Below are positions 8,501-34,470 of a stretch of 64,000 nucleotides of DNA, piece by piece; the stretch's first letter is position 1; every line of letters starts with the position of its first letter. Made by a program: the position numbers and the translations under genes. The notes under the pieces were generated by a model, which was given only the letters and a program-made list of their open reading frames with translations, did no database searches and was not told where the DNA came from. This DNA is from Candidatus Bathyarchaeia archaeon (GTDB lineage Archaea > Thermoproteota > Bathyarchaeia > Bathyarchaeales > Bathycorpusculaceae): NCBI GenBank assembly GCA_049516875.1, contig JBEKSS010000002.1, positions 32,001-96,000 on the forward strand, read 5' to 3'.

Positions 8501-9049
8501 GACGTACTGAACTGGGTAGATTTTCAAAAGAAGTATCTTGTACCCCGTCAGATACTGTTCGGAAATGTCTGAATATAATGAACTTGGAAAAGGATTCGTG
8601 GAGCTGTAGATTGCTTCGTTTGGCTTGTCAACCGCAGTGACATTTGAAGAGATAGGCATGGGTGTTTTCCCGTACATCACATTGAATCTGCCCTGCAACA
8701 CTTCTCTATTGCCAGGCGTTACGTCAACGCGTTTTACGCCCTTTCCTTCCGGAATCAAAATCCTAATCTGCCTGAAGGGCAGAACAGGTTCTCCCGGAGC
8801 ACCATACTGAGGCAGCGTAGGCATCGTGACAGAACTACCAGAAACGTTTAGAGCAATCTCAGGTGCGAGAAAATCAAGTTTTAGCACGATCGAATTGGAT
8901 GATTCCGTTTGCGATCCAACGTTTGGAACCGCGGAAAAATAAACACTGGATGCGAAAACAAGCATGCTAGTCAAAAGAATCATCAGGGCCGTGCCCAGAA
9001 ATATCCTGCTTGACAGGGACGCTCCTCCATTAGAGCTACAGTGTTTCAA
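5516..9049 (-). CDS. Secreted C25 (gingipain-like) cysteine peptidase with propeptide, NosD-type beta-helix, CARDB and C-terminal dockerin
   Basis: Signal/TM; GEPVLP propeptide; YVLLGGD, VGRAP, NHDGH (His) and SMGC (Cys), NLLGDP; SNNN repeats and GGNYW; HDVAV CARDB; DVNNDGVCNMKD dockerin. Confidence 0.88.
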   Translation of the reverse strand: MKHCSSNGGASLSSRIFLGTALMILLTSMLVFASSVYFSAVPNVGSQTESSNSIVLKLDFLAPEIALNVSGSSVTMPTLPQYGAPGEPVLPFRQIRILIPEGKGVKRVDVTPGNREVLQGRFNVMYGKTPMPISSNVTAVDKPNEAIYSSTNPFPSSLYSDISEQYLTGYKILLLKIYPVQYVPRTGELYYFETMTITVALEETGEISSLFRNLPQDRAQVVGMVDNPDAAKTYTKTPTGMQYTVLAGSLNHYDYVVITNNTLRSSFQPLVDWKNQKGLNATIVLIEDIMKNPKYNSDGQFGDGNGSPKFNDTQAHVRNFIKDAYLNWGTQYVLLGGDDDIIPARGIYDYAAYDGSWTDYNIPSDMYYGSLDGSWDKNNDTIFGEAVYHWPGPENGTAGEEADFFAEVYVGRAPVDTPQEATNFVNKTIAYEQSTQADYLKKALVIGTKLDDITEGGNGEDTVTDIIPQYTTTRLYQRDGTFSRTAVINEMNSGTHIINHDGHSNYQSAMGLSISDVDSLTNTQYFFVYSMGCYSAAFDEATSGSQQAIAEHFLFSAHGAFAYIGNSRYGWYCSASLDGPGERYDRSFFSVLNSGTRNLGKALQLSKEQEPILDRWTYFDLNLLGDPETEIVTAISAPTAHFKTRTDLLTPPRFGGLVGLQGIAKRGTTPSATFSNYTLAFGSGTAPTSWMTTGISLANNGKSEVVNGTLATWNTTGVAQGTYTLKLTVFDVNGLVGEDRQIVVVSTNALPVHIRADGSVDPPTAPIQHNGDVYTLSGNIYSDSEGIVIERNNIMLDGAGYTVQGSGGGAAGIYLLGRSNVTIKNVAVETHLYGIYLQQCSNNTILGTDTSNNIHGIFLLESSNNNVVETNVTNNYDGISLLSFSDNNSVTGCRITGNNGPLGSGIYLYMSSNNLIYDNIFANELVHVFDAVWDCADPGLIFPSINTWDKGYPSGGNYWDDYTGTDHYKGPCQNVTGSDGIGDTSYQIDMNNIDNYPLMSFYTPGHDVAVTDITPLKTVAGQGYCMNVSVAIANYGTFDENFNLSVFADSTLIAQTATSLTAANAVVIIFLWDTTGFAYGNHTLSAYVPPVSGETNTANNNRTCTIPVHVGVPGDVSSTVPGVYDGVANMKDVAYMIALFNTKPNSPNWKPNADVNNDGVCNMKDIAVAIHYFNNHE

Positions 9050-9147
9050 CCCTTAAAAACAATTTGCCGCCAGGCCATTTAGGACGCGATCGCCTTCCTT
9101 GGGCAGTTTCTGCCTTGGTTCTGTTATCTTTGCATTGCTTGCCAGCT

Positions 9148-9310
9148 TCAAGTTGGGCTGAAGTGGCCGTCGTTGACGGTGGGAACTGTTGATTGCTCGG
9201 CTGAGTTCAAAAGAGTCGCGTCATACAGACGTAAGCAGCAATCTCCATCATCTTTTACGTGAAACTGTATAGTTGCTAGAATGGCGCTTCCATTGATCTC
9301 GCGCACGCGA
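9148..9310 (-). pseudogene. C-terminal fragment of a cohesin-like domain
   Basis: NGSAILATIQFHVKDDGDCCLRLYDATLLNS...VNDGHF resembles the C-terminal half of cohesin domains; no N-terminal half or signal peptide. Confidence 0.5.
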
Positions 9311-9413
9311 GGCGCTTTTCCAGTCAACAAAGCAAAGTCATTCGCGCACATCTCTATATTGGCAAGATTTTTACCGTCAGAAATCTATTGAGAGAAGGGA
9401 GAAAAGAAGCAAT

Positions 9414-11306
9414 TTGTCCGAATTGAGCAGGGAGACAAAGAGGATTTCCGATGTGCTCAAGCTTGGAGCATCGTCACAGGTGTCCGATTATGAACGGCGG
9501 TTCTCGTCGCTTGAGAACCTTTACGATGGTCTTCTTTCGAACCTGACAAGAATGGAGTTTAGCCACAAGGAGGCGTATGCGACTGCAAGAGAATTTTTTA
9601 ACGGTTCCACGGTTCGTTTTGCAGGCATAGACGGCACAATGTATTCCAGGCCGCTTTTTGATATGGTGATATTCTTCGGAGGCGCTTATGCCTCAACGGG
9701 TACTGTGACTTTCAGAGAAAACGATGAGCCAATTGTCAAGTATGACGAAAAGACGATGCTGCAAAGAGCCGGCATATCGAGCGTTGTCCCAATCTACATC
9801 AACGAAGTAGTTGACCTGGATCAGGCTTTCTACGGGGATCAACCTTCGGAGGAAGTCAACCCGAACAGACCTTTCACGGATGAATCGATAATAGACAATG
9901 CAACAATTGCAAACTGGATAATGACTTTCTCAGAATATTACCTTGCCTACAAACTTGCCTCAGATGAAAGCAAAAACATGCGTATACTCCTTATGGACAG
10001 AAGTCTCTCAATCGAACGCGCAAGCCTTCTCTACGACACGTCAAAACACGAATTCTGGAAGACCAAAAGCAACATAAGAGGATACGAAATTGACGGAGAA
10101 CCCATCGACGAAAACGATTTGACCTTAGCCAGGCAACACGTGTGCAACCAAGTTTTGGGCTTGCCGCCGGCAAGAGCGGACTACCTCCTTCACGCGATAA
10201 TCAACTTGATTCAACGAAAGGGACCATTAACCCTGAAGCAGATCCTCAGTGAATTGGGCGTAGACGACGAGAGGAGAGCGAAAAGAGCCAAACGAAGTCT
10301 GAACAGCTCGGTTAAAAGAGGAATGCTGAAAGAGGAAAAGAACGAGAGTTATGTTCTTAACCCCAAATACGCCACAACCTGGGAACGCGTTAGAAAGCTT
10401 GTGACAAGCTTGGGCGACCAGTTCTTTTTTGCAGGATCAGACAAGGCGATGAAGATTGTGAAGGGCGGTGAAGAACATTGGTTGACAACCCTTGATGTCG
10501 CTTTTCTCACCCTTTTCACGTTGCACTTGCTGATGGAAGAGTGCTGGAAAAAGCACATCTTGCTGATAGGTATGACGAAGGACACGGCGGCAAGAGACTT
10601 CAAGCGCCAGTTGATCCCACTGCTGCACAACGAGGGATTGTTGAAAACTGCGGTTTCCCAGGAAGCTTTTGCTGCTCTGCCTAACACGGATAGAATGATA
10701 CTTCAGTCAACGAGCATTTTCAACCCGGAGAAAATCAAGCCTCCTTGGAGTCTCATCGAGTACGACTCTGCAGTTAGAACCATGGTTCCAGACAGGCAAA
10801 AAAGTCCGGCCTACGTTTCAGGCGCCATAAAGAATAGAATAACCCTTGAAAAAACGTTCCTCAAGACATACGTACAGCTAAGCCAGGCTAGGACGGACCC
10901 TATGCTGCGCAGCAACGTGCTTCTCATCGACCGCCTTGTCTATCCAGAACATGACTACAAGCATGAAAACGTTGTAAAACTCTGGAACGAATTCGGCGGC
11001 GCGACAGAACCCGTGGAGATCATGATTTTTAAAGACAAGAACGTGGTCAACAAGCTTCAAAATCTTGTCATGAACGTGCTGGTTGCCATGGCTCCTTCCA
11101 GCATCCCTGAAGCCTTCGGTCACAACAAACCGCTGTTCATCGCTGACAAGATTGCGAAATGGAATTACAGCCAGTTCAAATGTGTGGTGGACACAACGGC
11201 AAGCTGGATGCTGAACAACCATAAATTGAGAAAGTTCATATTCTATATGAGCACTTTCAGGGAAAGGAGGGCTTCAATTGAGTCCACAAGAAGAGAAAGC
11301 GTTTAA
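9414..11306 (+). CDS. nurA: NurA-family nuclease with an inserted winged-helix-like segment
   Basis: FAGIDGT, LLMDRSL, IGMTKD and GHNKPLFIADKIAK correspond to NurA motifs; LTLKQILSELG...LNSSVKRGML insert; adjacent to a HerA gene. Confidence 0.7.
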   Translation: MSELSRETKRISDVLKLGASSQVSDYERRFSSLENLYDGLLSNLTRMEFSHKEAYATAREFFNGSTVRFAGIDGTMYSRPLFDMVIFFGGAYASTGTVTFRENDEPIVKYDEKTMLQRAGISSVVPIYINEVVDLDQAFYGDQPSEEVNPNRPFTDESIIDNATIANWIMTFSEYYLAYKLASDESKNMRILLMDRSLSIERASLLYDTSKHEFWKTKSNIRGYEIDGEPIDENDLTLARQHVCNQVLGLPPARADYLLHAIINLIQRKGPLTLKQILSELGVDDERRAKRAKRSLNSSVKRGMLKEEKNESYVLNPKYATTWERVRKLVTSLGDQFFFAGSDKAMKIVKGGEEHWLTTLDVAFLTLFTLHLLMEECWKKHILLIGMTKDTAARDFKRQLIPLLHNEGLLKTAVSQEAFAALPNTDRMILQSTSIFNPEKIKPPWSLIEYDSAVRTMVPDRQKSPAYVSGAIKNRITLEKTFLKTYVQLSQARTDPMLRSNVLLIDRLVYPEHDYKHENVVKLWNEFGGATEPVEIMIFKDKNVVNKLQNLVMNVLVAMAPSSIPEAFGHNKPLFIADKIAKWNYSQFKCVVDTTASWMLNNHKLRKFIFYMSTFRERRASIESTRRESV

Positions 11307-19090: not shown

Positions 19091-19639
19091 CACACAAACC
19101 GAGGACTACCGACCTTTTCGCCTTCCAACCCAACTTTTTCCTATCTTTTTCTAGCTCTGCAGAGAGGTTTATTTGAGGTTCCAACTAAACAAAACATCAT
19201 ACGACTCTGCCCCGTTTTCGCCTAGACCCCCTAGTTTTTTGCTTGCATGAAGCCTCCGACGTATCATAGTTTGTGGTATCAGAACCCTTAGACTATGCCG
19301 CGCGTCGGGTTTGTGCCTACGACGAAAGGTGATGTCACCCCAACCCCCTTTTTCCACCCAGAAAGGAATGGTCTGTGCATAGGTTGCTAAACATCAACCT
19401 ATTGAACTGTGGAGACCGCTGGGCGCGCGCTTCAATCGTCCTCATTCATTCTAGTCTACGATATTGTTTCATAATGGGACTACACGAGAATATCGGTCTG
19501 CCTAACGCTACGTAGACATAGCACAGCACTGAACGACAAGTAAATATCATAGATGTCGATTCGTGGTTAGTATACCTTATTATCAACTGGAACAAACACT
19601 TTAAATCTCAGCCGTTTGGAAAAGGGAAAGAGGGTCAAT

Positions 19640-20008
19640 ATGGACCAAGAAGGAAAGGAAGAATATACCGAATTCCTCAACCTCATAAAGATATTCATTT
19701 CCATGCTTAGCGAGAACGGTAAGTTGATTACGAAGATGGGAGAAATAGAGAAGAGATTTCCGAACGAATTCAAGATGATGAAAGAGTTCTCTCCGGAGAG
19801 ACTTGATGCTTTTGTGGAAAAAGCACCACCTGAGATTGCAGGCCTGTTCCTGAAAATAATGCTCAGGGCGGCGGCTATGGGGCCAAAGACTAGTAGAGCC
19901 ATGGAACTGCCGGCTGAAGAAAAACTCGAACTTGGGAAGCAGATAAACGAGCTCGTCAAAGATCTAGAAATCCTCTTGAAAAAAGTTGAAGAGGAGAGTA
20001 AGAAATGA
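19640..20008 (+). CDS. Hypothetical helical protein, first gene of the island operon
   Basis: ATG 19640 after TTTAAAT near 19600; E/K-rich helical sequence; ATGA overlap with the next gene. Confidence 0.75.
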   Translation: MDQEGKEEYTEFLNLIKIFISMLSENGKLITKMGEIEKRFPNEFKMMKEFSPERLDAFVEKAPPEIAGLFLKIMLRAAAMGPKTSRAMELPAEEKLELGKQINELVKDLEILLKKVEEESKK

Positions 20009-20376
20009 GCCTAGAACCACAACAACTGTTTTCAGGGTTATGGTCATCAATCAGAGAAGGACTAATCTCGATGTTTTTCCCGTCTGATTTGTTGCACCCG
20101 ATAGAAAAGGCGGCACAGTACATTTCCACAAAGTTCGAACAGAATGTTGTTCTGGAAACAGATATGATTCTCAAACAAACAACGCTGAAAACCATCATAG
20201 GACCAGAAGATCACTATCAGAGACTATGCCTCAGATCTCTTGCAGGTCTTCCCGCGATTCCTAGGACCATTAACGAAAACCCTGTAAGCGTGACAGACCT
20301 CAAAGGTTGCTTATCTTGGGTCTCAAAAGGCAAGATCGATGTAACTGAACTTATCCGAGAAATCCGGGATAGCTAA
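20005..20376 (+). CDS. Putative antitoxin with VapB-like C-terminus
   Basis: Ends DLKGCL...KIDVTELIREIRDS, resembling archaeal antitoxin tails; TAATG coupling to the PIN gene. Confidence 0.55.
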   Translation: MSLEPQQLFSGLWSSIREGLISMFFPSDLLHPIEKAAQYISTKFEQNVVLETDMILKQTTLKTIIGPEDHYQRLCLRSLAGLPAIPRTINENPVSVTDLKGCLSWVSKGKIDVTELIREIRDS

Positions 20377-21026
20377 TGACCGATTCTGCACCAGTGAGAA
20401 TCTATCCGGATACCAACATTCTTGTCTCGTATTCATTAGGGGATTCAGATGAGAACTTTGAACTTGCTGAAAAGCTGTTCGAAGAAGTCCAGAATAACAA
20501 ATACATGATGGTGGTCTCCAATTTCACCCTAATGGAGACTCTGCATGCGCTTCGGACAATAGTCACGAAAATGAAATATCAAGAACTTGACAACAGCCCA
20601 TCTCAAGGCGATTTGATACAAATCGCAAACTCAAAACCTTTCGAAGAAACTGTACACAAAGAGAGCATGAAGGCCTTCAGCACGATCATCGACAAGATAA
20701 CGAAAGACACACAACACTTCAGTTTCGAACCAGACGGCTTAACATACCCAAACGAAACATTTGCGGCAGGTCTCCCCTTGCTGTTGGCAACCAAAGGATC
20801 TTTTCGCGTATACAGGTTTCGCTGCCAGAAATGCAACAGCTATCTGAAATGCTCTTCCTGCAGAGTTGATAGCGAGATTGTCTATAAGGAAGCAAATGCT
20901 CCAGATCTAGTTCACCTATTGATATCAGAGCGGCTCGGATGCAAACTGTTTTTCACCATGGACAAATCCTTCGCAAACATACCCATTAAAGATGGGCGAG
21001 TGAAGATAGAAGTATTAGCAAAGTGA
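20376..21026 (+). CDS. PIN-domain (VapC-like) nuclease with Zn-ribbon insertion
   Basis: IYPDTNILVS, SNFTLMETL, DLVHL, FFTMDKSF acidic PIN motifs; CQKC...CSSC insertion. Confidence 0.85.
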   Translation: MTDSAPVRIYPDTNILVSYSLGDSDENFELAEKLFEEVQNNKYMMVVSNFTLMETLHALRTIVTKMKYQELDNSPSQGDLIQIANSKPFEETVHKESMKAFSTIIDKITKDTQHFSFEPDGLTYPNETFAAGLPLLLATKGSFRVYRFRCQKCNSYLKCSSCRVDSEIVYKEANAPDLVHLLISERLGCKLFFTMDKSFANIPIKDGRVKIEVLAK

Positions 21027-21491: not shown

Positions 21492-22439
<948 letters not shown>

Positions 22440-22546
22440 CTACTAGATAACCCTTGTCAACAACGCAAAACCGCGCGGCCAGGGCAAGGGTTAAAGTCTT
22501 TTATTCGTGTTCCGATCATAAGCCTTCTCTCAGAGGGAAATCTGGC

Positions 22547-23011
22547 TTGAGCGAAACAGAGCTGCGGGTTTCCAAAATCAGAGACGGCACGGTAATCGAT
22601 CACATCACCGGCGGCCACGCCCTAGACGTTGCCAAAATCCTGGGAATAACGGGCCGCGAGAAAGGACCCATAACCATAGCCATCAACGTTCCAAGCAAAC
22701 GGTTCAGAACAAAGGACATCCTCAAAATCGAGGGCAGAGAACTCAACCCTCAGGAAGTGCACAAAATCGCCCTCATAGCGCCACACGCGACCATCAACAT
22801 CGTCCGCAACTACAAGGTGATAAAAAAACAAGAAGTCAAGCTGCCGAAGACCATAGAGAACATCATCAAGTGCGCGAACCCCGCTTGCATAAGCAACAGC
22901 AACGAGCCTGTTAAACCCAAATTCTACGTTGAATCCGAGGATCCCCTGTTGCTGAAGTGTCATTACTGCGGCAACATCATCGAGAAAAAGGATTTACTCC
23001 AACAGTTCTAG
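22547..23011 (+). CDS. pyrI: Aspartate carbamoyltransferase regulatory subunit
   Basis: LRVSKIRDGTVIDHI, CANPACIS, CHYC; likely start TTG 22547 rather than 22454. Confidence 0.95.
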   Translation: MSETELRVSKIRDGTVIDHITGGHALDVAKILGITGREKGPITIAINVPSKRFRTKDILKIEGRELNPQEVHKIALIAPHATINIVRNYKVIKKQEVKLPKTIENIIKCANPACISNSNEPVKPKFYVESEDPLLLKCHYCGNIIEKKDLLQQF

Positions 23012-23639: not shown

Positions 23640-24110
23640 CTAGGCACCGAGTTGCCGGCAGGCTCGCCTAAACAGTCCTTCAAAGTAGTCTTTTTCCAGC
23701 TTCTTGCCCTCACCTATTCCGGGGCATTCCTGTGTGCAGAAGAATCCGTGTTTTCCGTCCTTCATTCCTCTCAGCTCGAACGGGTAGAAAACGCACACCA
23801 AAGGCCTAAGCTCGTAAACACTGCAGTTTCTTCCCTCAAGAAAAAAACATTTTCCCTCTTCACCAGTTTTTCTCATCTCGTAAACGTAAGGCTCTTGGCC
23901 CTCGATCTCCACCGCAAACGTCTCAACCGGCTTCAGAACGGCCTTCGAGATTGCCTGAGCCTCTCCCCACAAGAGCAGAACATGCCTCCTTCGACTCTTC
24001 GTGTCTCCACAACAAAGCGCACACCTCGTGCATTGAAAACACACATCTCTGGGATAGCTAAAACCCGCTCTCCCCCGCGATGTCACGCACTCACGACTCA
24101 AGGCTCTCAC
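23640..24110 (-). CDS. YkgJ-family (CxxCxxCC) cysteine-cluster protein
   Basis: FQCTRCALCC, CFFL...CSVYELRPLVCVFYPF, CPGIG. Confidence 0.9.
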   Translation of the reverse strand: MRALSRECVTSRGRAGFSYPRDVCFQCTRCALCCGDTKSRRRHVLLLWGEAQAISKAVLKPVETFAVEIEGQEPYVYEMRKTGEEGKCFFLEGRNCSVYELRPLVCVFYPFELRGMKDGKHGFFCTQECPGIGEGKKLEKDYFEGLFRRACRQLGA

Positions 24111-24292
24111 AACTCAAGTTCAAGTTTCCGGTCTTGCGCAGCCGACAGCGTTCTATTGAAAACCGCAGATATATACCTTCAACCCAAAGCAAAACACCCG
24201 TAGCAGCGCAAGAGCAGTCCACGCTTCACATCAACATCAAAGCCAATCAGCAACAATCCTGCTCGCGCCTCAAGCGCAGAAGGCCGTTCACG

Positions 24293-24353
24293 TTTTGAGA
24301 CTCAAAGAAATCACGGATTGAGTACTCAAACACAAGGACTCAAAACACAACAT
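24293..24353 (+). repeat. Double-palindrome repeat, copy 2
   Basis: ttttgagactcaaagaaatcacggattgagtactcaaacacaaggactc; 3' of tRNA-Pro. Confidence 0.85.
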
Positions 24354-24391
24354 ACCCACAACCAAAAAACAACATCGCACAAACAGCAGAA

Positions 24392-24469
24392 TGGTGGGGC
24401 TGCCCGGATTTGAACCGGGGTCACGAACGCCCGAGGCTCATAGCCTAGACCAAACTAGCCGACAGCCCC
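24392..24469 (-). tRNA. tRNA-Pro(CGG), CCA encoded
   Basis: Reverse complement GGGGCTG...TGAGC-CTCGGGC-GTTCG...CCCGG-TTCAAAT-CCGGG-CAGCCCC-ACCA. Confidence 0.93.
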
Positions 24470-24578
24470 AAACCCTTCACCCATTCCTATTTCCAAAACC
24501 ACAAAATAAGCCTATCCCAACACCTTTAAACCCCACACACCCAAAATAGTACACCCCCACCACCACAGAGGCCAAACC

Positions 24579-26771
24579 TTGTCCGCCAGCCACCGCACCC
24601 ACGGAATCAAAATCCTCAAAGCCATAGGCTCACCCCTAAGACTGCAAATCCTGAACCTCCTTTTCGACAAAGGCTCCCTCAGCTACACGGAACTCATGAG
24701 CAACTTGAAAATGAACCCAAGCAGAGACGCAGGAAGATTCGCCTACCACCTCAAATTCCTCCTCAAAGCAGACCTCATCGAAGCCATCGTCGACCAAAAA
24801 AAATACGGCCTAACCGACCTCGGCAAAATGGTCATCGACGTCGCCGACAGAATAGACAAAAAAGCCTACAAAACAAAAAACACACTCATCCGCGCCAGTA
24901 GATCAGCCATAGAAGAATTCGACGCCAACAAAATCGCAAACGCACTAATAAAAGAAGCCAAAATGCCCCCCGAACAAGCACAAAAAATAGCCAAAGAAGC
25001 CGAAACCCAACTCCTCAAATCCAAAACCAAATACCTAACCACCCCACTCGTGAGAGAACTCGTAAACGCCATCCTCATCGAAAAAGGCCTCGAAGAATAC
25101 CGAAACAAACTCACACGCCTCGGAATACCCGTCCACGACGTCACCAACCTCCTACACACACAGCAACAACCAACAAGCCCGCTGGAAGCAGCAGGACAAA
25201 CAGTCTTCAAAGAATACACACTCCTGAACACGTTGCCAAGAGACATCGCAGACGCCCACCTCTCAGGCGCCCTACACATCAACAACCTCAGCACATGGAT
25301 ACTCAAACCCACAGAAACCGTACACGACATCAGATTCTTCCTACAAAACGGCCTAAACCTAGAAACAATCAACCCCACCCAAACCAACCAACCCCCACCC
25401 CACAACCTGGACACAGCCCTAACAACACTCTTCAACGTCCTCCTCCACTCACAAAAAGAAACAGAAACAACCCAAACACTCGAATACTTCAACACCCTCC
25501 TCGGCCCATACACAAAAAACCAGGAACCAGCAAAAACAAAAGAAGCACTGCACCAGTTCATAACAAACCTAAGCCAACACACAGACACCGCCATAAGCCT
25601 AGAACTCACGACACCAGGCTTTTTAGCCGAAAAAACCGCCATCGCACCAGACGGCAAACAAGCCGGCAAGTACGCGGACTACACGGAAGAAACCCAGCAG
25701 CTAGCATCACTGCTCCTGGACACATTCACCGAAGAAAGCGCTCAAAAACCGTTGGTCAACCCCAAACTCATCATCAAAATACGCCCAGAAACACTCAAAG
25801 ACGAAACAGCAAAAGCCACACTCCTCAAAGCCCACGCACTTGTAGCACACAACGGCACACCATACTTCGCCAGCTTAACAGAGCATAAACAAACAGTCCA
25901 CACCCCTTCAGGGTTCAAACTGGACGCCGAAGCAGACGACGACTGGGAAATCGACACTCTCCGCACCGGACTCCTGGGCACTGTAACAGTAAACGTGCCA
26001 CGTGTAGCCTACGAATCTGGAAACGACAAGACAAAGTTCCTCGAAACGCTCAAGGAAAGACTTGAAATGGCAAACCGCGCCCTGGAAATCAAACACCAAG
26101 CCCTAAGACAACACGGCAAGAACCTGCTCCCATTCCTCATGCAGAACACCGACGGCGACCAGTACTTCAGACTCGAAAAAAGCATACACACGATAAACCT
26201 GGCAGGACTGACAGAAGCCGCAGAAGCCTTCACGGGCAAGAGCATCGAAGACGAGAAAACCGTAGCCTTCGTCCAAGAAACCGCACAGAACATCACAACG
26301 TTCATAAACAAAATCGGAAGAAAACGCGGAAAACACCTGTACGCAGCAACGATGCCAAACCCCGAAGCCTCAGCAAGACTGGCACAACTGGACATCGAAA
26401 GATACGGAATCGCAAGAGTCCACTTCTCAGGCACAAGAGACAAACCCTACTACTCCACAACAGACACAGTCACACTCAAGAACGGCAACATCCCCCAACA
26501 ACCCCAAACGACGAGGAGCAGAACAAGCCAAACACGCACGGGCGGAAACCTAACGCTGATCGAACTCGACGAGACACAACACGAACCAGAACAGCTTCTT
26601 TCGGTAACTAGGCAACTCGTAGAAAACCGCAACATGGAATTCTTCACCTACAACCGCAAAACAACCTACTGCACAAACTGCAAAAAAACTTGGCCCGGCC
26701 AGGCACACAAGTGCCCCCAATGCAACGCCGTGAGCACACTCACGTACTACGACAGATCCGACCAAACCTAG
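24579..26771 (+). CDS. ArsR-HTH + ATP-cone + class III ribonucleotide reductase (NrdD)-like fusion, probably catalytically inactive
   Basis: SPLRLQILNLL...FAYHLKFL HTH; EEFDANKIANAL...LTTPLVRELVNAIL ATP-cone; DAHLSGALHIN, VTVNVPRVA, TYCTNC...CPQC NrdD features; no C-terminal RxxGY. Confidence 0.82.
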   Translation: MSASHRTHGIKILKAIGSPLRLQILNLLFDKGSLSYTELMSNLKMNPSRDAGRFAYHLKFLLKADLIEAIVDQKKYGLTDLGKMVIDVADRIDKKAYKTKNTLIRASRSAIEEFDANKIANALIKEAKMPPEQAQKIAKEAETQLLKSKTKYLTTPLVRELVNAILIEKGLEEYRNKLTRLGIPVHDVTNLLHTQQQPTSPLEAAGQTVFKEYTLLNTLPRDIADAHLSGALHINNLSTWILKPTETVHDIRFFLQNGLNLETINPTQTNQPPPHNLDTALTTLFNVLLHSQKETETTQTLEYFNTLLGPYTKNQEPAKTKEALHQFITNLSQHTDTAISLELTTPGFLAEKTAIAPDGKQAGKYADYTEETQQLASLLLDTFTEESAQKPLVNPKLIIKIRPETLKDETAKATLLKAHALVAHNGTPYFASLTEHKQTVHTPSGFKLDAEADDDWEIDTLRTGLLGTVTVNVPRVAYESGNDKTKFLETLKERLEMANRALEIKHQALRQHGKNLLPFLMQNTDGDQYFRLEKSIHTINLAGLTEAAEAFTGKSIEDEKTVAFVQETAQNITTFINKIGRKRGKHLYAATMPNPEASARLAQLDIERYGIARVHFSGTRDKPYYSTTDTVTLKNGNIPQQPQTTRSRTSQTRTGGNLTLIELDETQHEPEQLLSVTRQLVENRNMEFFTYNRKTTYCTNCKKTWPGQAHKCPQCNAVSTLTYYDRSDQT

Positions 26772-27144: not shown

Positions 27145-28062
27145 TTATCTTGTTTTTGCGGGTGGTTTGGATTTTTTTATGGCGAGGTAGATGGTTGTGG
27201 CTGCTAGGATGATGGTTGATGTTATGAGGGTGTAGTTGATGTTTGTGCTGAGGGCTTGTTGGCCGCGAGCGGCGTCGTAGTTTGCTGTGAGGCTTGTGTA
27301 GCTTGAGTTTAGTGCGTTGTAGTATTGTGTTAGGTTGTTGTAGTTGGAGTTGAGGGATTGGAGGCTGTTTTGTAGGCTGGTGTAGTTTGCCAGTAGTGCG
27401 TTGAATGTTGTGTGGAGGCTGTTGTAGTTTGTTTCTTGTGAGTTGTAGTTGGCTGCTAGTGAATTGTAGTTTGCGGTTAGGCTGTTGTAGTTGGCGAGTA
27501 GTGTGTTGTAGCTCAGGTTGAGTTGGTTGGTCTGGCTGAGAAGGTTGGCGTAGGCTGTTGAGGTTTCGTTGAAGTTGGTGAGTAGCTGGGTGTAGTTGGC
27601 GAGTAGGTTGGTGTAGTCGGTGAGCAGGGAGTTGTAGGTGGCGTTCAGGGTCGTGTATTCTGGGGATGGGACGAATTCTGTTATTGTGAAGGTGAAGTTG
27701 AAGCTTACTGGGCCGTAGTTGAAGATGGATGAGTCTACTCGGATGGTGTGGTTTCCCACGTTGGACAGCGGAGGCTCGGTAGGGACTGTCAGGTTGTAGT
27801 TGTAGGAGCCGTCTGCTCCTAGCGCGCCCTGCTGGTTGAGGGCTACGGTGGTGTCGTCCCAGAAGATGTCGGCTGTCTGGACGTTGCCCACGCTTGCGTT
27901 TGTCGTGGTGAATCTGAGGAGGATGATCGTGGTGGCTGTCCCTTGTGAAGGAAGTATTTCTGCCTCTATCGGGCTGCCCTGGGCTCTCACTTGCATCGCC
28001 GTTAAGCCTATCAGAGATATGAGAACGAAAATTGCCATCAATGTCTTGTAAGGTTTGTTCAT
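27145..28062 (-). CDS. Secreted, C-terminally anchored coiled-coil protein
   Basis: Signal peptide, Ig-like segment, YNSLxAN heptads, C-terminal TM and basic tail. Confidence 0.8.
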   Translation of the reverse strand: MNKPYKTLMAIFVLISLIGLTAMQVRAQGSPIEAEILPSQGTATTIILLRFTTTNASVGNVQTADIFWDDTTVALNQQGALGADGSYNYNLTVPTEPPLSNVGNHTIRVDSSIFNYGPVSFNFTFTITEFVPSPEYTTLNATYNSLLTDYTNLLANYTQLLTNFNETSTAYANLLSQTNQLNLSYNTLLANYNSLTANYNSLAANYNSQETNYNSLHTTFNALLANYTSLQNSLQSLNSNYNNLTQYYNALNSSYTSLTANYDAARGQQALSTNINYTLITSTIILAATTIYLAIKKSKPPAKTR

Positions 28063-28434: not shown

Positions 28435-29136
28435 ATGGCAGTCGACCAAGAAAACGTGTCAAAAATTCTGTCCGTAATATCTCATAGCCTGAGAAGAGAG
28501 ATTCTCCTAAACCTCAGTGAAAAGAATGAATGCTCCTTCACAGAATTGATGAATGATCTCAATGTGGACACAGGAAAACTTAGTTTTCACATTCGAAGTC
28601 TCGATGTTTTTCTGGAACGGACACCAACTGGGAAATACAGATTAAGCAAAGTAGGCGAAAATGCGGTAAGACTGGTCAAAGACTTAGAAGGGTGGGCAGC
28701 AGAAGCAGAGGTTGCAAGAAAAACATCCAGTCTGCCAATTGCCACCTTCAAGAAAAGAACTCTCGCTTTTCTCATAGACTTTTCTCTGACCCTTGCAATA
28801 TCAATTCTGATAACGCTGCCGAATGCTGTTTCTCTGCTGGCGGGAGGCGCATTCGCTTTGGATACAACCCTCGTTGTTTTTCTCGTTCTTCTGTGGGGAT
28901 ATTCGACCCTTTTGGAGGGATTTGCTGGTCAGAGTTTAGGAAAACGTATTATGGGCCTGAAAGTTGTGAAAATCGACGGCAAAAAACTGTTCTACGACGC
29001 TGCAGCTGTGAGGAATTTTGGCAAAGCTTTTCTACTACCGTTTGACCTGCTCATTGGCCTGAGATTAGAGGACGAGAGGTTTATCAGGTACTTCGACAAG
29101 TTCGCTGGCACAACTGTAATAGACTTGAAACCCTGA
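28435..29136 (+). CDS. ArsR-HTH / RDD-family membrane fusion protein
   Basis: HSLRREILL...TGKLSFHI HTH; KRTLAFLID and GQSLGKRIMGLKVV RDD motifs. Confidence 0.85.
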   Translation: MAVDQENVSKILSVISHSLRREILLNLSEKNECSFTELMNDLNVDTGKLSFHIRSLDVFLERTPTGKYRLSKVGENAVRLVKDLEGWAAEAEVARKTSSLPIATFKKRTLAFLIDFSLTLAISILITLPNAVSLLAGGAFALDTTLVVFLVLLWGYSTLLEGFAGQSLGKRIMGLKVVKIDGKKLFYDAAAVRNFGKAFLLPFDLLIGLRLEDERFIRYFDKFAGTTVIDLKP

Positions 29137-30883: not shown

Positions 30884-31762
30884 CTATTCGGTTTCTTTTT
30901 TCATTTTTTCGAGTGCTTCACGTATTCTTAGTGGTTTGTTTGTGAGTGTTTGTTCTGCTTTTTCTACGTTTAGTGAGGAGTCTTTGGGTCTTTTTGCCAA
31001 CCATTTGATGTTTTTCGCTTGTGCGGGTGTTATGTATTTTGTGTCGAGGTTGAAGGTTTTGGCGATGTGTTCGGCGAATTCGTGCCTGCTGAGGCGGGTT
31101 GCTCCGGCCGTGTGTAGGATTCCCTTGACTCTTCTTTCTAATGCTTCTATTATCATCTCAGCCATGTTGACGTTAAGTGTTGGTGAATTCCACTGGTCGG
31201 TTGCTATTTTGACGTCTTCTCTCTTCTGGAGTTTGTCAAGTAGCCATAATGCGAAGTTGGTTTTTTCTGTTGCGGGTGTTGAGCCGTAGATGACGCTGCC
31301 TCGGGCGATGCAGTAGTTGTCCAGGGCTTGGACGGCTTCTTCACCTTTCAGTTTTGTGAGGCCGTAATGGTTGACCGGCGCGGGTTTGTCTGTTTCTTCG
31401 TACATTCCCTTTTCTCCGTCAAAAACGTAGTCTGTGGACACGTATGTGAGAAAGACATCGTGTTCTTTGCAGAGTTGTGCGAGGTGGGCTGTTGCTTGAA
31501 AGTTTGTTCTCCAAGCGAGTTCTTTTTCCAGTTCGCATTTGTCTACGTCGGTCAGTGCGGCGGAGTGTATCACGGCTTCTGGTTTTATTTTTTCAAGGGC
31601 ACGCTGCTGGCCTTTGAGGTTGAGGATGTTGAGTTCGACGAGGTTTCCGTACGCTGGCTTGTGTTGGCTGTAGGCAGAGTAGACTTCGTGCTTGTTTCTC
31701 AGGGCCGTCTCGCACAGTTTCGTGCCCAGTAAGCCGCTTGCACCAGTGATTAAGAGCTTCAC
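30884..31762 (-). CDS. rfbD: dTDP-4-dehydrorhamnose reductase
   Basis: GASGLLG, TDVDKCE, STDYVFDG, YGLTK. Confidence 0.93.
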   Translation of the reverse strand: MKLLITGASGLLGTKLCETALRNKHEVYSAYSQHKPAYGNLVELNILNLKGQQRALEKIKPEAVIHSAALTDVDKCELEKELAWRTNFQATAHLAQLCKEHDVFLTYVSTDYVFDGEKGMYEETDKPAPVNHYGLTKLKGEEAVQALDNYCIARGSVIYGSTPATEKTNFALWLLDKLQKREDVKIATDQWNSPTLNVNMAEMIIEALERRVKGILHTAGATRLSRHEFAEHIAKTFNLDTKYITPAQAKNIKWLAKRPKDSSLNVEKAEQTLTNKPLRIREALEKMKKETE

Positions 31763-32766
31763 AGGGGCTCACTTTTCTTCCAGGGTGTCGGACTCAAGAC
31801 CTGTTCTGTCGCTAGCTGTTTCCACCATGACTCGTTGTGGATGTACCAGTCAACGGTGTCCTTCAGAGCCTTTTCGAAAGAATGTTTGGGTTTCCAGCCT
31901 AACTCTGAGCGTATTCGTGAAGAGTCTAGGCTGTATCTTGCATCGTGTCCCGGTCTGTCTTCCACGAAGGCTATTAGATCCTGATGTTTGCCCAGTTGTT
32001 TGAGGATTTTCTTAACAATTTCAATGTTGGACGTTTCGTTGCCTGCTGCGATGTTGTAGATTCGGCCTGCCTGTCCCTTGGTTAGGACGAGGTGTACGGC
32101 TTCGCAGTGGTCGAGCACGTAAATCCAGTCTCTGATGTTCTTGCCAGTTCCGTACAATGGGATCTTGAGGTTTTTGAGGGCTCTGATTATTGTTTTGGGT
32201 ATCAGTTTCTCAGGAAACTGGTAGGGGCCGTAGTTGTTTGTGCACCTTGTTATGGCCGCATTGAGCTTGTAGGTTTTGAAGTATGCGTTGACTAGCATGT
32301 CGGCGGCTGCTTTTGATGCGGAGTAGGGGTTTGAGGGTCTGGGAGGATCGTCTTCCGTGAATGGGTCTTCGGCCGTTTCCCCGTAGACTTCGTCTGTCGA
32401 AACTTGTACGAATCTTGCCCTTCTGTTGTGTTCTCTTACAGCCTCTAGAAGGGTGAAGGTTCCAAGTGTGTTGTTGTGCAGAAACTCGCTTGGGTCGGTT
32501 ATGCTTCTGTCCACGTGGGTTTCAGCTGCGAAGTTTACGATGGCCTCTGCTTCTACTACTAGGCGTTTCATGAGTTTTGGGTTTCGGATGTCGCCCTTTA
32601 CGAACCTGTATCGTTTTTCTTTGTCGATGTCTTTAAGGCTCGTTGGGTTGGCGCTTAGGCCTATTTTGTCTACGTTTGTGACTTCTGCGTCTGGATGCGA
32701 TCTAATTGTTGAGCGGCAGAAGTTGCTTCCTATGAAACCGAGTCCGCCTGTGACAAGAATTTTCAT
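31759..32766 (-). CDS. rfbB: dTDP-glucose 4,6-dehydratase
   Basis: GGLGFIGSNF, FAAETHVDRSI, STDEVYG, YSASK, DRPGHD. Confidence 0.96.
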   Translation of the reverse strand: MKILVTGGLGFIGSNFCRSTIRSHPDAEVTNVDKIGLSANPTSLKDIDKEKRYRFVKGDIRNPKLMKRLVVEAEAIVNFAAETHVDRSITDPSEFLHNNTLGTFTLLEAVREHNRRARFVQVSTDEVYGETAEDPFTEDDPPRPSNPYSASKAAADMLVNAYFKTYKLNAAITRCTNNYGPYQFPEKLIPKTIIRALKNLKIPLYGTGKNIRDWIYVLDHCEAVHLVLTKGQAGRIYNIAAGNETSNIEIVKKILKQLGKHQDLIAFVEDRPGHDARYSLDSSRIRSELGWKPKHSFEKALKDTVDWYIHNESWWKQLATEQVLSPTPWKKSEPL

Positions 32767-32772
32767 GGTGTT

Positions 32773-33285
32773 TCACTTGTAGGGTGGGAGGTTCCAGTCC
32801 CACGGTTTGCCCGTTCTCGGGTCGTCTTTCTTGCCGTTTATGATTTTCGGGACTATTTTCGGGTCGTTCCAGGGTCTCCTTTCTTCGTCCGGGCTTGCGT
32901 AGTCATAGAGCTTGGTGGTGAAGTAGACGAGAAGGGCGTTTTCGTTTCCCACGGCTTTGTATCCGTGCCAGTAGTGGCCTGGCATCCTAAGCACTTGCAG
33001 ATCCAGTCCTGTTGAGATTAGTTCGTCGAGTTCTTTTGTCTCTTCATCGTACGCGCATATTTTCAGGGCTCCCTTGAGGACTATGAAGTAGTCGACTTGC
33101 CCACGCTTATGTCGGTGCCAGGCGCGAATTATGCCCGGGTAGGTTGTGGAGAAGTTTGTTTGGACAGGTTGATCCTGACCTAGGAGTTCTTTCCAGTCTT
33201 GTCGCATGATTTCGGTGAAACACCCTCTTTCGTCGCAGGCGCGTTTTAGGGGTTTAGGTGTTATTCCTTTGAGCATGTCTTTCAC
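32773..33285 (-). CDS. rfbC: dTDP-4-dehydrorhamnose 3,5-epimerase family
   Basis: DERGCFTE, IRAWHRH, YWHGY cupin motifs; operon context. Confidence 0.9.
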   Translation of the reverse strand: MKDMLKGITPKPLKRACDERGCFTEIMRQDWKELLGQDQPVQTNFSTTYPGIIRAWHRHKRGQVDYFIVLKGALKICAYDEETKELDELISTGLDLQVLRMPGHYWHGYKAVGNENALLVYFTTKLYDYASPDEERRPWNDPKIVPKIINGKKDDPRTGKPWDWNLPPYK

Positions 33286-33286
33286 T

Positions 33287-34363
33287 TCACAGTTCTATGC
33301 ATGTTCTTTCTCCGAGGATGAATTTCTTTCCATGCGGTTTGGATTTGTTGGTGGTCAGTTCTGAGTAGGGACCGATTATGCTGTCTGTCATTCTTTCTTT
33401 CATGTCTATTGTGCAGTTGTCCATTATTATGCTGTTTTCTATTTCGCCTTTTTTGATGGTGCAGTTGTTTCCTATGCTTGTGTAGGGGCCGATGTATACG
33501 TTCGGTTCGATAACGGTGTTTTGCCCTATCACGACTGGGCCTCTGACGAGGGCGCCTTCTTTTATGGTTGAGCCATTGGCTGTGGCGACTCGGCCTTGGA
33601 CGGAGGCGTCGTTTTCGATTTTGCCTTGGGTTTCTGGTTTGAGTTCGTCGAGGACTAGGCGGTTGGCTTCGAGGATGTCTTCGGGCGTGCCGGTGTCTTT
33701 CCACCAGCCTTGGACGATTTGGTAGCCCACGTTGTGGCTGGTTTCGAGTAGTAGTTGGATGGCGTCTGTTATTTCGAGTTCTCCTCTCGCTGATGGTTTG
33801 AGTCTGTTTATCATCTTGAAGATTGCGGGTTTGAAGAAGTAGATGCCGGTCAGAGCGTAGTTGCTTGGTGGTTTCTTGGGTTTTTCTATCAGCTTTGCCA
33901 GTCTTCCTTTTTCATCGATTTTGGCAACTCCAAACCGTTGGGGATTCTTTACTTGGCATAAGAGTATCATCGCGTCGTAGTTTGAGCCTTTGAACTTGCT
34001 GACGAAACTGGTGATTCCGCCTTTCAGTAGGTTGTCTCCGAGGTAGACGATGAAGGGTTGGTCTTTAATGTAGTCTTTGCAGAGGCTTACGGCCTGGGCT
34101 ATTCCCTTCGGTTCGTCCTGTTGGATGTACTGAATATCTACGCCGAATCTTTTCCCGTTGCCGTAGTATTCTTTGACTTTTTCTGGGAATACGTTTCCAA
34201 GGACTATTGCAATTTGGGTTATGCCAGAGGCTTTCAGGTCTTCAAGCACGTACTGTGAGTTGGGTTTGTTTGCGATTGGAATCAGCTGTTTTGGGCCCGT
34301 GTGGGTTAATGGCCTGAGTTTGCTTCCGAAACCGCCGTGAAGAATAACACCTTTCATTCTCAC
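33287..34363 (-). CDS. rfbA: Glucose-1-phosphate thymidylyltransferase (long form)
   Basis: GGFGSKLRPLT...KQLIPIANKP, YLGDN, RGELEITD, WKDTG, hexapeptide C-terminus. Confidence 0.95.
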   Translation of the reverse strand: MRMKGVILHGGFGSKLRPLTHTGPKQLIPIANKPNSQYVLEDLKASGITQIAIVLGNVFPEKVKEYYGNGKRFGVDIQYIQQDEPKGIAQAVSLCKDYIKDQPFIVYLGDNLLKGGITSFVSKFKGSNYDAMILLCQVKNPQRFGVAKIDEKGRLAKLIEKPKKPPSNYALTGIYFFKPAIFKMINRLKPSARGELEITDAIQLLLETSHNVGYQIVQGWWKDTGTPEDILEANRLVLDELKPETQGKIENDASVQGRVATANGSTIKEGALVRGPVVIGQNTVIEPNVYIGPYTSIGNNCTIKKGEIENSIIMDNCTIDMKERMTDSIIGPYSELTTNKSKPHGKKFILGERTCIEL

Positions 34364-34470
34364 CGTGCTTCCTAGGCTTTCCTGTTATGGGAAAGATTGA
34401 TGCAATTCGTATTTAAACACGACTATCTGCGCGCGGAGTGGTTTGTGATGTGATGGCATTGTGGTGAGAA

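Follow-up and report, generated by a model that had tools for sequence, protein, structure and literature searches.

A non-catalytic class III ribonucleotide reductase fused to a winged helix: a candidate NrdR-like regulator in Bathyarchaeia and other archaea

What purpose is served by an intact archaeal gene whose product has the fold of a class III ribonucleotide reductase (NrdD), lacks the catalytic residues of that enzyme, and begins with a helix-turn-helix (HTH) domain? The gene lies in a stretch of 64,000 nucleotides from Candidatus Bathyarchaeia archaeon (assembly GCA_049516875.1, contig JBEKSS010000002.1, positions 32,001-96,000, forward strand), which was analyzed at its full length and is called the window here. 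An initial annotation of the gene had described an intact pseudo-enzyme that keeps allosteric (deoxy)nucleotide sites to control DNA binding, in functional analogy to bacterial NrdR. We consider it reasonably likely that the fusion, a non-catalytic descendant of an archaeal class III ribonucleotide reductase, is a cone-based, NrdR-like transcription regulator of nucleotide-supply genes. The gene and its parts are as follows (window coordinates; aa, amino acids).

24579..26771, + strand: whole fusion gene (winged HTH, ATP-cone and dead NrdD), 730 aa, TTG start, open reading frame (ORF) intact
24579..24863, + strand: ArsR-type winged HTH, aa 1-95, profile matches to Pfam DUF7347 and HTH_5
24885..25112, + strand: variant ATP-cone (Pfam), aa 103-178, hairpin R105-A106-S107, the best-conserved domain of the family
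25113..25178, + strand: cone-to-core connector, aa 179-200, motif TRLGIPVHDVT, with R180, G182 and P184 invariant
25179..26648, + strand: NrdD-type ten-stranded barrel, aa 201-690, structure intact, catalytic and substrate-binding residues lost
25905..25922, + strand: finger-loop remnant PSGFKL, aa 443-448, with F446 aligned at the thiyl-radical Cys position
26649..26768, + strand: Zn ribbon (C698, C701, C712, C715) and truncated tail, in which TLTYY (aa 720-724) replaces RxxGY

The four parts named in the initial annotation, the ArsR-type HTH, the ATP-cone, the NrdD-like barrel and the Zn ribbon, were all recovered. At the N terminus, Pfam DUF7347 matched aa 13-87 with 30.5 bits and HTH_5 matched aa 18-68 with 28.9 bits, both over their cut-offs, and the family profile matched the HlyU and ArsR structures through the winged helix with E values of about 2e-4. 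The recognition-helix motif RDAGRFAYHLKFL was kept in the alignment from Bathyarchaeia through ammonia oxidisers, and the linker between the winged helix and the cone was short and poorly conserved. The Pfam ATP-cone (PF03477) matched aa 107-174 with 35.9 bits against a cut-off of 25.8, and Pfam NRDD (PF13597) matched aa 203-726 with 240 bits. The AlphaFold2 model, for which 61 family sequences were aligned, had a predicted local distance difference test score (pLDDT) of 87.8 and a predicted template-modelling (TM) score of 0.78. The top Foldseek matches of this model in the PDB were all class III ribonucleotide reductases (E values of 3e-27 to 6e-18, target-normalised TM scores of 0.59-0.76), and other glycyl radical enzymes ranked far below them.

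The finer family models placed the protein outside the working enzymes. The NCBIfam NrdD equivalog TIGR02487 gave the window protein 246.7 bits, under the cut-off of 326.35, whereas an active Bathyarchaeial NrdD adjoining a fusion orthologue scored 520.5 bits, over the cut-off. TIGR00244 (NrdR) was absent from the NCBIfam matches of the window protein, and the ArsR subfamily model NF033788 gave it 28.9 bits, below the cut-off of 55. The 730-aa ORF contains exactly four cysteines, at positions 698, 701, 712 and 715 (CTNC...CPQC), which are the Zn-ribbon ligands, and ends in TYYDRSDQT, just as the initial annotation had read it.

To locate the changes, the protein was aligned with the active NrdD of this genome and with active NrdDs beside fusion orthologues in other Bathyarchaeia. 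The finger loop of the active enzymes, SMCCRL or SQCCRI, was PSGFKL in the window protein, with F446 at the thiyl Cys position. The radical-Gly motif, RVVGY or RITGY in the active enzymes, was replaced by TLTYY, in which Y723 occupies the place of the Gly, and the tail is truncated. The loss of both radical sites, which the initial annotation had read from PSGFK and the missing RxxGY, was therefore confirmed by alignment. The first-strand Cys of active NrdD (Tm C125) was replaced by E246, in a column that holds E, S, T, N or D across the family.

The substrate-binding residues were also changed. Equivalences to Tm residues were obtained from family-profile alignments to solved NrdDs, and the residue roles are those given in the consulted portions of PMC4493059 and PMC11226230. 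The triphosphate motif HxHD, which is HIHD in active NrdD, was H233-I-N-N in the window protein, where Tm Y112, H114, D115 and R116 equate to H233, N235, N236 and L237, and the phosphate-binding Lys (Tm K501) equates to E596. The NxN motif (ENANLQHNP), which follows the connector in active NrdDs and is described as their substrate flap in the part of PMC11226230 available to us, was deleted or replaced. Loop 2 was about 7 aa shorter than in the NrdD of this genome, and it varies across the family. As judged from these alignments, the fusion protein lacks every catalytic feature of NrdD that was compared.

Were these losses peculiar to one genome? In a word-indexed search, 1601 hits with E <=1e-3 were found among 8000 scored candidates, and the best 120 (59-95% identity) were examined; a hidden Markov model found the winged helix in 120/120. 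An exhaustive search of representatives clustered at 50% identity returned 1824 hits with E <=1e-3, of which 338 had E <=1e-30, and the winged helix was present in 92 of the 150 examined. Among these listed matches, the 212 HTH-bearing relatives (120 + 92) had no RxxGY in the last 90 aa (0/212) and no HxHD in residues 100-400 (0/212). A loose xGCR/xCCR pattern was found in 7 of the 212, as a finger-loop SGCRL in four (P0027, P0029, P0101, P0131), in the Zn ribbon in one and elsewhere in two. Among the helix-less full-length relatives listed, 24 of 39 had RxxGY.

In a quick maximum-likelihood tree of 49 rows, hand-picked from those available, a single branch with an SH-aLRT support of 100 split 35 dead from 14 active proteins; the tree is unrooted, and several of its branches are long. 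One branch parting dead from active proteins fits a single old origin of the dead family. The ratio of nonsynonymous to synonymous substitution (dN/dS) was calculated by the Nei-Gojobori method in 20 orthologues from the taxonomic family of the window; the three closest pairs that were not saturated (dS no higher than about 1) gave 0.18, 0.088 and 0.148. Synonymous sites were saturated in 7 of the 14 most similar pairs, and also between the window protein and its nearest relative (61% identity). Among the full-length matches listed in the class and phylum surveys, no internal stops were found except one TAG in genome G124.

A match to the N-terminal 220 aa (helix, cone and connector) was found in 274 of 401 genomes sampled across the phylum; 216 of the 334 good-quality genomes had one. 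The HTH fusion is thus conserved phylum-wide. Some families were fully or nearly covered by this module (56/56, 30/32, 24/24 and 17/17 genomes), while others had no match to it (0/23, 0/16, 0/15 and 0/12). The source names of cluster members included Bathyarchaeota, Nitrososphaerales, Nitrososphaeraceae, Thaumarchaeota and Odinarchaeia. Archaeal amoA was found in 5 of the 5 complete ammonia-oxidiser genomes tested, from two families, and the only PF13597 match in those genomes was the fusion. Both the glycyl radical and the activase are sensitive to oxygen, according to the part of PMC9669993 consulted. That the tested ammonia oxidisers keep a dead copy as their only NrdD-like gene argues for a non-catalytic job. 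A shorter version was observed at one ammonia-oxidiser locus (L047, genome G507, 8152-10113), where the protein has 653 aa, lacks the Zn ribbon and is not encoded beside nrdJ.

Taken over the family, the absence of RxxGY from all 212 relatives and the dN/dS values of 0.09-0.18 indicate that the fusion family is old and under purifying selection and is not a product of local decay, which upholds the intact pseudo-enzyme of the initial annotation. We are highly confident that the protein is non-catalytic and was selected for another function.

Which function this may be is suggested by the neighbouring genes. Those of the window are given below.

21492..22430, - strand: pyrB (aspartate carbamoyltransferase; Pfam), the most persistent neighbour of the family besides reductase genes
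22454..23011, + strand: pyrI (regulatory chain; Pfam), listed ORF start at 22454
24392..24469, - strand: tRNA-Pro (CGG; ARAGORN), divergent from the fusion gene

The order in the window is thus pyrB(-), pyrI(+), two small ORFs, tRNA-Pro(-) and fusion(+), and the closeness of pyrB and pyrI noted in the initial annotation holds. The true start of pyrI is probably after 22454, because the Pfam match begins at aa 37 of the listed ORF. A tRNA-Pro (CGG) divergent from the fusion was also seen by eye in several loci of sister genera and in three distant Bathyarchaeial loci (L033, L034 and L036).

By comparison of coordinates among the matches listed, 33 Bathyarchaeial genomes have both the fusion and a true class III nrdD. 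In 26 of these the fusion stands directly upstream of nrdD in the same orientation, with gaps that range from overlapping to about 660 bp, and pyrB and pyrI often come after this pair. The other 7 lack this arrangement, and in 6 of them the two genes were on different contigs. In ammonia oxidisers, the neighbour was an ATP-cone-bearing class II nrdJ (TIGR02504, 707.6 bits), which lay 141-345 bp downstream of the fusion in 22 of 23 loci; these loci were picked for their listed coordinates, and all but one came from a single family. In all 19 loci from sister genera, within the window's own family, the fusion and pyrB were tail-to-tail, with pyrB recognised by its likeness to the Pfam-checked protein of the window. 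A further 19 loci came from other families: pyrB and/or pyrI were adjacent in 7, including one nrdD-nrdG-pyrB arrangement, and a weak carbamoyltransferase-like gene was adjacent in 2. Since the fusion stands beside reductase genes and pyrB/pyrI across lineages, the family is tied to genes of nucleotide metabolism, namely working reductases of either class and pyrB/pyrI.

One open frame of 1668 aa (locus L035, 6059-11065, - strand) had been considered as a possible intein. This was rejected: a P-type ATPase ORF runs in-frame into the dead-NrdD gene, and the frame is probably two genes and not a fusion.

The true reductase genes of this genome lie outside the window. A canonical nrdR-nrdD-nrdG operon was found on contig C5 (locus L001, 776-4082, - strand) and a class II nrdJ on contig C10, which answers the question in the initial annotation of where the real reductase is. 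The only NrdG above cut-off is that on C5 beside the true nrdD, and the activase is not adjacent to the fusion, as had been remarked. The operon is headed by a bona fide NrdR (TIGR00244, 161 bits, above cut-off). All 10 genomes sampled from the window's family have NrdR, whereas elsewhere in the order its occurrence is sporadic. The Bathyarchaeia-type nrdD was found in none of 27 genomes of the window's own family, and in the tree the C5 NrdD stood on a long branch apart from that type. This separate branch suggests that the ancestral nrdD neighbour of the fusion was replaced by an imported operon.

If the protein senses nucleotides, which of its parts would do so? To compare them, conservation was measured in 43 members with mutual identity below 62%, as the mean frequency of the top residue in each region. 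This frequency was 0.71 in the cone, 0.58 in the connector, 0.51 in the helix and 0.39-0.48 in segments of the barrel. A frequency of at least 0.9 was reached at 26 of the 76 positions of the cone and at 11 positions of the helix. Between the window protein and an ammonia-oxidiser orthologue, cone and connector were 48% identical and the barrel 22%. The cone hairpin is R105-A106-S107-R108 in the window protein, and the family has R in 43/43, T in 36/43 and S in 41/43. E112, which aligns with Ec E15, was retained by 40 of the 43, and at K118, which aligns with Ec K21, all 43 had K or R; this mapping rests on alignment, and the residue roles are those given in the consulted part of PMC12662201. 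The sister active NrdDs have the same VRTS hairpin and TRLGxPVxDV connector, which indicates that this type of cone was inherited from working enzymes and is not degraded.

The barrel gave a mixed result. The position of Tm H114 was N in 9 members, P in 7, C in 6 and E in 6, among others; that of D115 was mostly N (17) or D (9), and that of R116 mostly L (18) or A (12). At the phosphate-binding Lys position, the family mostly has E (13/43) or D (8/43), and the specificity-site Gln position is K in 12, N in 9, L in 6 and R in 5. The last position is Asn in the window protein and also in the active NrdD of this genome, which does not keep the Gln/Glu specificity pair of the T4 and S. thermophilus enzymes as described in the source sections available. 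With the pair missing even there, this residue cannot decide for or against effector binding. The barrel residues N305, N472, P474, R475, R600 and D605 are nearly invariant, and in the alignment the ammonia-oxidiser members have large barrel deletions, with the cone kept. The claim that the protein keeps allosteric (deoxy)nucleotide sites was accordingly not supported in that form: only cone and connector are strongly conserved, with a non-canonical hairpin, whereas in the barrel the triphosphate motif, the Lys, the flap, loop 2 and the specificity Gln are lost or variable.

The absence of decay, the phylum-wide fusion to an HTH, and the neighbourhood of reductase and pyrB/pyrI genes together make an NrdR-like role, as the initial annotation had supposed, the best reading. 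In such a regulator, the winged helix would bind promoter DNA and the ATP-cone would read ATP versus dATP. In active NrdD, ATP and dATP make the cones dock or pair, according to the available text of PMC12662201. In the fusion, the dead barrel would act as a dimeric platform for docking or pairing of the cones, and this movement would bring the two DNA-binding heads together or apart. This genome has lost the ancestral nrdD beside the fusion and has nrdR-nrdD-nrdG and nrdJ elsewhere; candidate targets in it are pyrBI, nrdJ and the promoter of the fusion itself. A wider version is tentative, and we would rate it somewhat short of an even chance: the family may be the master regulator of DNA-precursor supply that has been missing in archaea, acting in Thermoproteota (Bathyarchaeia and ammonia oxidisers) and Asgard archaea. 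The ATP/dATP-driven repositioning of the cone would have been taken over from the enzyme and, on a dead barrel, would open and close two DNA-binding heads, which would couple expression of class II or class III reductases and pyrBI to dATP/ATP.

Several observations weigh against the NrdR-like role. Some concern the neighbourhood: 10 of the 19 loci from other families had none of the reference genes nearby; the contact with pyrB is tail-to-tail in most cases, an unusual layout for a regulator and its target; the fusion of the window adjoins no reductase gene in its own genome; and genomes within a family are kin, so that the neighbourhood counts are inflated and not independent. A true NrdR is already present in this genome and in all 10 sampled genomes of its family. 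Others concern the cone. The canonical hairpin residues K-R, which contact phosphates according to the consulted part of PMC12662201, are A-S in the window protein and T-S in the family, and the window's cone on its own matched no solved ATP-cone by sequence at E values up to 10. The remaining points concern the promoter. No inverted repeats were found in window positions 24100-24600, and no operator was found in this lineage. The 20 fusion promoters of the window's family share only a B recognition element (BRE)/TATA box and an initiator-like AATA, and the fusion promoter shares nothing obvious with the upstream regions of nrdJ, nrdR or pyrB/pyrI in this genome.

Part of this evidence would suit a DNA-binding protein that senses no nucleotide and uses cone and barrel for oligomerisation or for another ligand or partner. 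The non-canonical hairpin, the lack of a sequence match to solved cones and the presence of an NrdR in the same genome would be expected of such a protein. On the other hand, the cone is the most conserved domain, with the 26 positions of at least 0.9 described above, the same cone type occurs in the sister active NrdDs, and the neighbourhood is one of nucleotide metabolism. We regard this explanation as unlikely.

It was also considered that the regulator might, as the initial annotation had proposed, sense through nucleotide sites of the barrel itself, at the interface between subunits (the specificity site) or in the former active site, with the cone merely structural. The fold is complete and confidently modelled, the six barrel residues N305 to D605 are nearly invariant, and the Asn at the specificity Gln position is shared with the active NrdD of the same genome. 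However, HxHD is down to one His, the H114, D115 and R116 positions are variable, the Lys that binds phosphate is mostly replaced by E or D, the specificity Gln position varies, loop 2 is shortened and variable, and the NxN flap is gone. Further, the ammonia-oxidiser members have kept the cone in spite of large deletions in the barrel. Sensing by the barrel therefore appears doubtful, and we would give it little credence.

Pseudoenzymes often act on their active paralogues, and a third explanation is that the protein works at the protein level, as a dead subunit that pairs with true NrdD or docks on a reductase, with the DNA-binding helix secondary. The position of the gene beside true nrdD, partly in an operon with overlapping or near-abutting genes (L033, L034 and L036), would agree with this. 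In the five amoA genomes tested, though, the fusion is the only NrdD-family match and its neighbour is a class II nrdJ; the helix has 11 positions of at least 0.9; and in this genome nrdD is on another contig. Such a modulator is improbable. That the protein is still an enzyme with unusual chemistry, or a decaying pseudogene, is almost certainly wrong: the source label 'anaerobic ribonucleoside-triphosphate reductase' and the SGCRL finger Cys in 4 of 212 listed relatives speak for it, against the complete lack of RxxGY and HxHD in those 212, the missing first-strand Cys and flap, the presence of the fusion in amoA-carrying genomes, and the intact frames at low dN/dS with G124 as the one stop-bearing exception.

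The upstream regions were searched for an operator. The control region of the window gene holds the following.

24523..24571, + strand: probable promoter and ribosome site, with the CCTTTAAAC box at 24523-24531 and GAGG at 24568-24571

TTTAAA lies at 24525-24530, about 50 nt upstream of the start, and GAGG is 8 nt upstream of it. The CCTTTAAAC box was kept in the 19 loci of sister genera. The 13 nrdJ upstream regions obtained from 18 nrdJ loci of the window's family showed only a TATA box and a Shine-Dalgarno-like GAGTTGA.

Two candidates came from other lineages. Each of the 4 genomes of one genus (G009, G027, G033 and G051) contains a single exact copy of the palindrome TGTATATACA, always immediately ahead of the TATA-like box belonging to the fusion-nrdD operon (loci L033, L034 and L036). 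It was not carried over as an operator for the window gene: the genomes are close kin, and when one mismatch was allowed the reversed control was as frequent or more so. In the ammonia-oxidiser loci L044-L066, GATC was found at 17.0/kb upstream of the fusion and at 13.2/kb in the fusion-nrdJ spacer, compared with 4.3/kb in 72 kb of flanks, and seven control palindromic tetramers ranged from 0.7 to 5.5/kb. All but one of these loci are from a single family and are close kin. As a lead for the window gene, GATC was likewise set aside, since other 250-nt windows in the flanks reached similar counts. In many of the same loci, inspection by eye showed a second palindrome, TATGAANTTCATA, roughly 100 nt before nrdJ. 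GATC and TATGAANTTCATA are possible operator elements in ammonia oxidisers.

The composition of the gene is unusual. The coding strand of the fusion is 71% A+C, with T at 2.2% and G at 10.8% of third codon positions. The orthologues of sister genera have 52-55% A+C, and the genome mean is 0.517 (standard deviation 0.046, ORFs of at least 300 aa). A value of at least 0.62 was found in 20 of 937 listed frames, a few of them overlapping, which are scattered on 10 contigs, and high A+C also occurs in the window at 27145-28062 (-) and 30884-34384 (-). The bias tracks the coding strand and not the replication strand, and an mRNA of 71% A+C could hardly fold on itself.

Two further loci were noted in the window. 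Positions 28435-29136 (+) encode a second DUF7347/ArsR-type winged helix, which is fused to an RDD membrane domain. A PIN-domain protein is encoded at 20376-21026, downstream of two small overlapping ORFs without a family match; this cassette, at 19616-21026 (+), may be toxin-antitoxin-like.

How does the fusion compare with known systems? Like NrdR, the ATP-cone repressor of reductase operons in bacteria, it joins a DNA-binding domain to an ATP-cone; in many relatives, though not in the window, its gene lies at or next to reductase genes, and its DNA binding would be expected to be under the same ATP-versus-dATP control. It differs in having a winged helix at the N terminus where NrdR has a Zn ribbon, a dead NrdD barrel and a Zn ribbon after the cone, and the hairpin R-T/A-S in place of K-R. 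It also lacks a TIGR00244 match and occurs in this genome in addition to a real NrdR. With class III NrdD (PF13597, TIGR02487; structures 4COI, 8P23, 9D3X and 1H78), it shares the fold, the Zn ribbon and a common origin, and the archaeal NrdD subclass beside it in Bathyarchaeia has the same VRTS-type cone and TRLGxPVxDV connector. Unlike these enzymes, it has no glycyl site, thiyl Cys, first-strand Cys, HxHD or NxN flap; it has a shorter loop 2, a truncated C terminus, an added HTH and an equivalog score below cut-off.

Regulators made from enzyme folds fused to an HTH include the aminotransferase-like MocR/PdxR proteins, the ROK repressors and NrtR, in which a scaffold with lost or reduced catalysis is kept as a sensor or dimerisation module. 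The fusion follows the same principle, but sensing would probably fall to the cone, an accessory domain, and not to the former active site. To our knowledge, none of those regulators derives from a ribonucleotide reductase or from any glycyl radical enzyme. The winged HTH fold is common to the fusion and to ArsR/SmtB proteins; the fusion nevertheless falls under the NF033788 cut-off and has no Cys in aa 1-697, which means that its helix has no Cys-based metal site. In the literature searched, with supplementary files outside that search, no description of an HTH-fused or dead NrdD was found.

Databases name the protein 'anaerobic ribonucleoside-triphosphate reductase', and metabolic reconstructions that rely on this label would assign an anaerobic reductase, in error, to aerobes and to uncultured archaea. 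We know of no dedicated reductase regulator other than NrdR. The fusion family is a concrete and widely distributed candidate for the gene-level control of deoxynucleoside triphosphates in archaea, where NrdR is rare according to the part of PMC9110341 consulted, and it is testable in cultured ammonia oxidisers. If the NrdR-like role is true, the family would show plainly how a large radical enzyme can be taken over as a scaffold for regulation.

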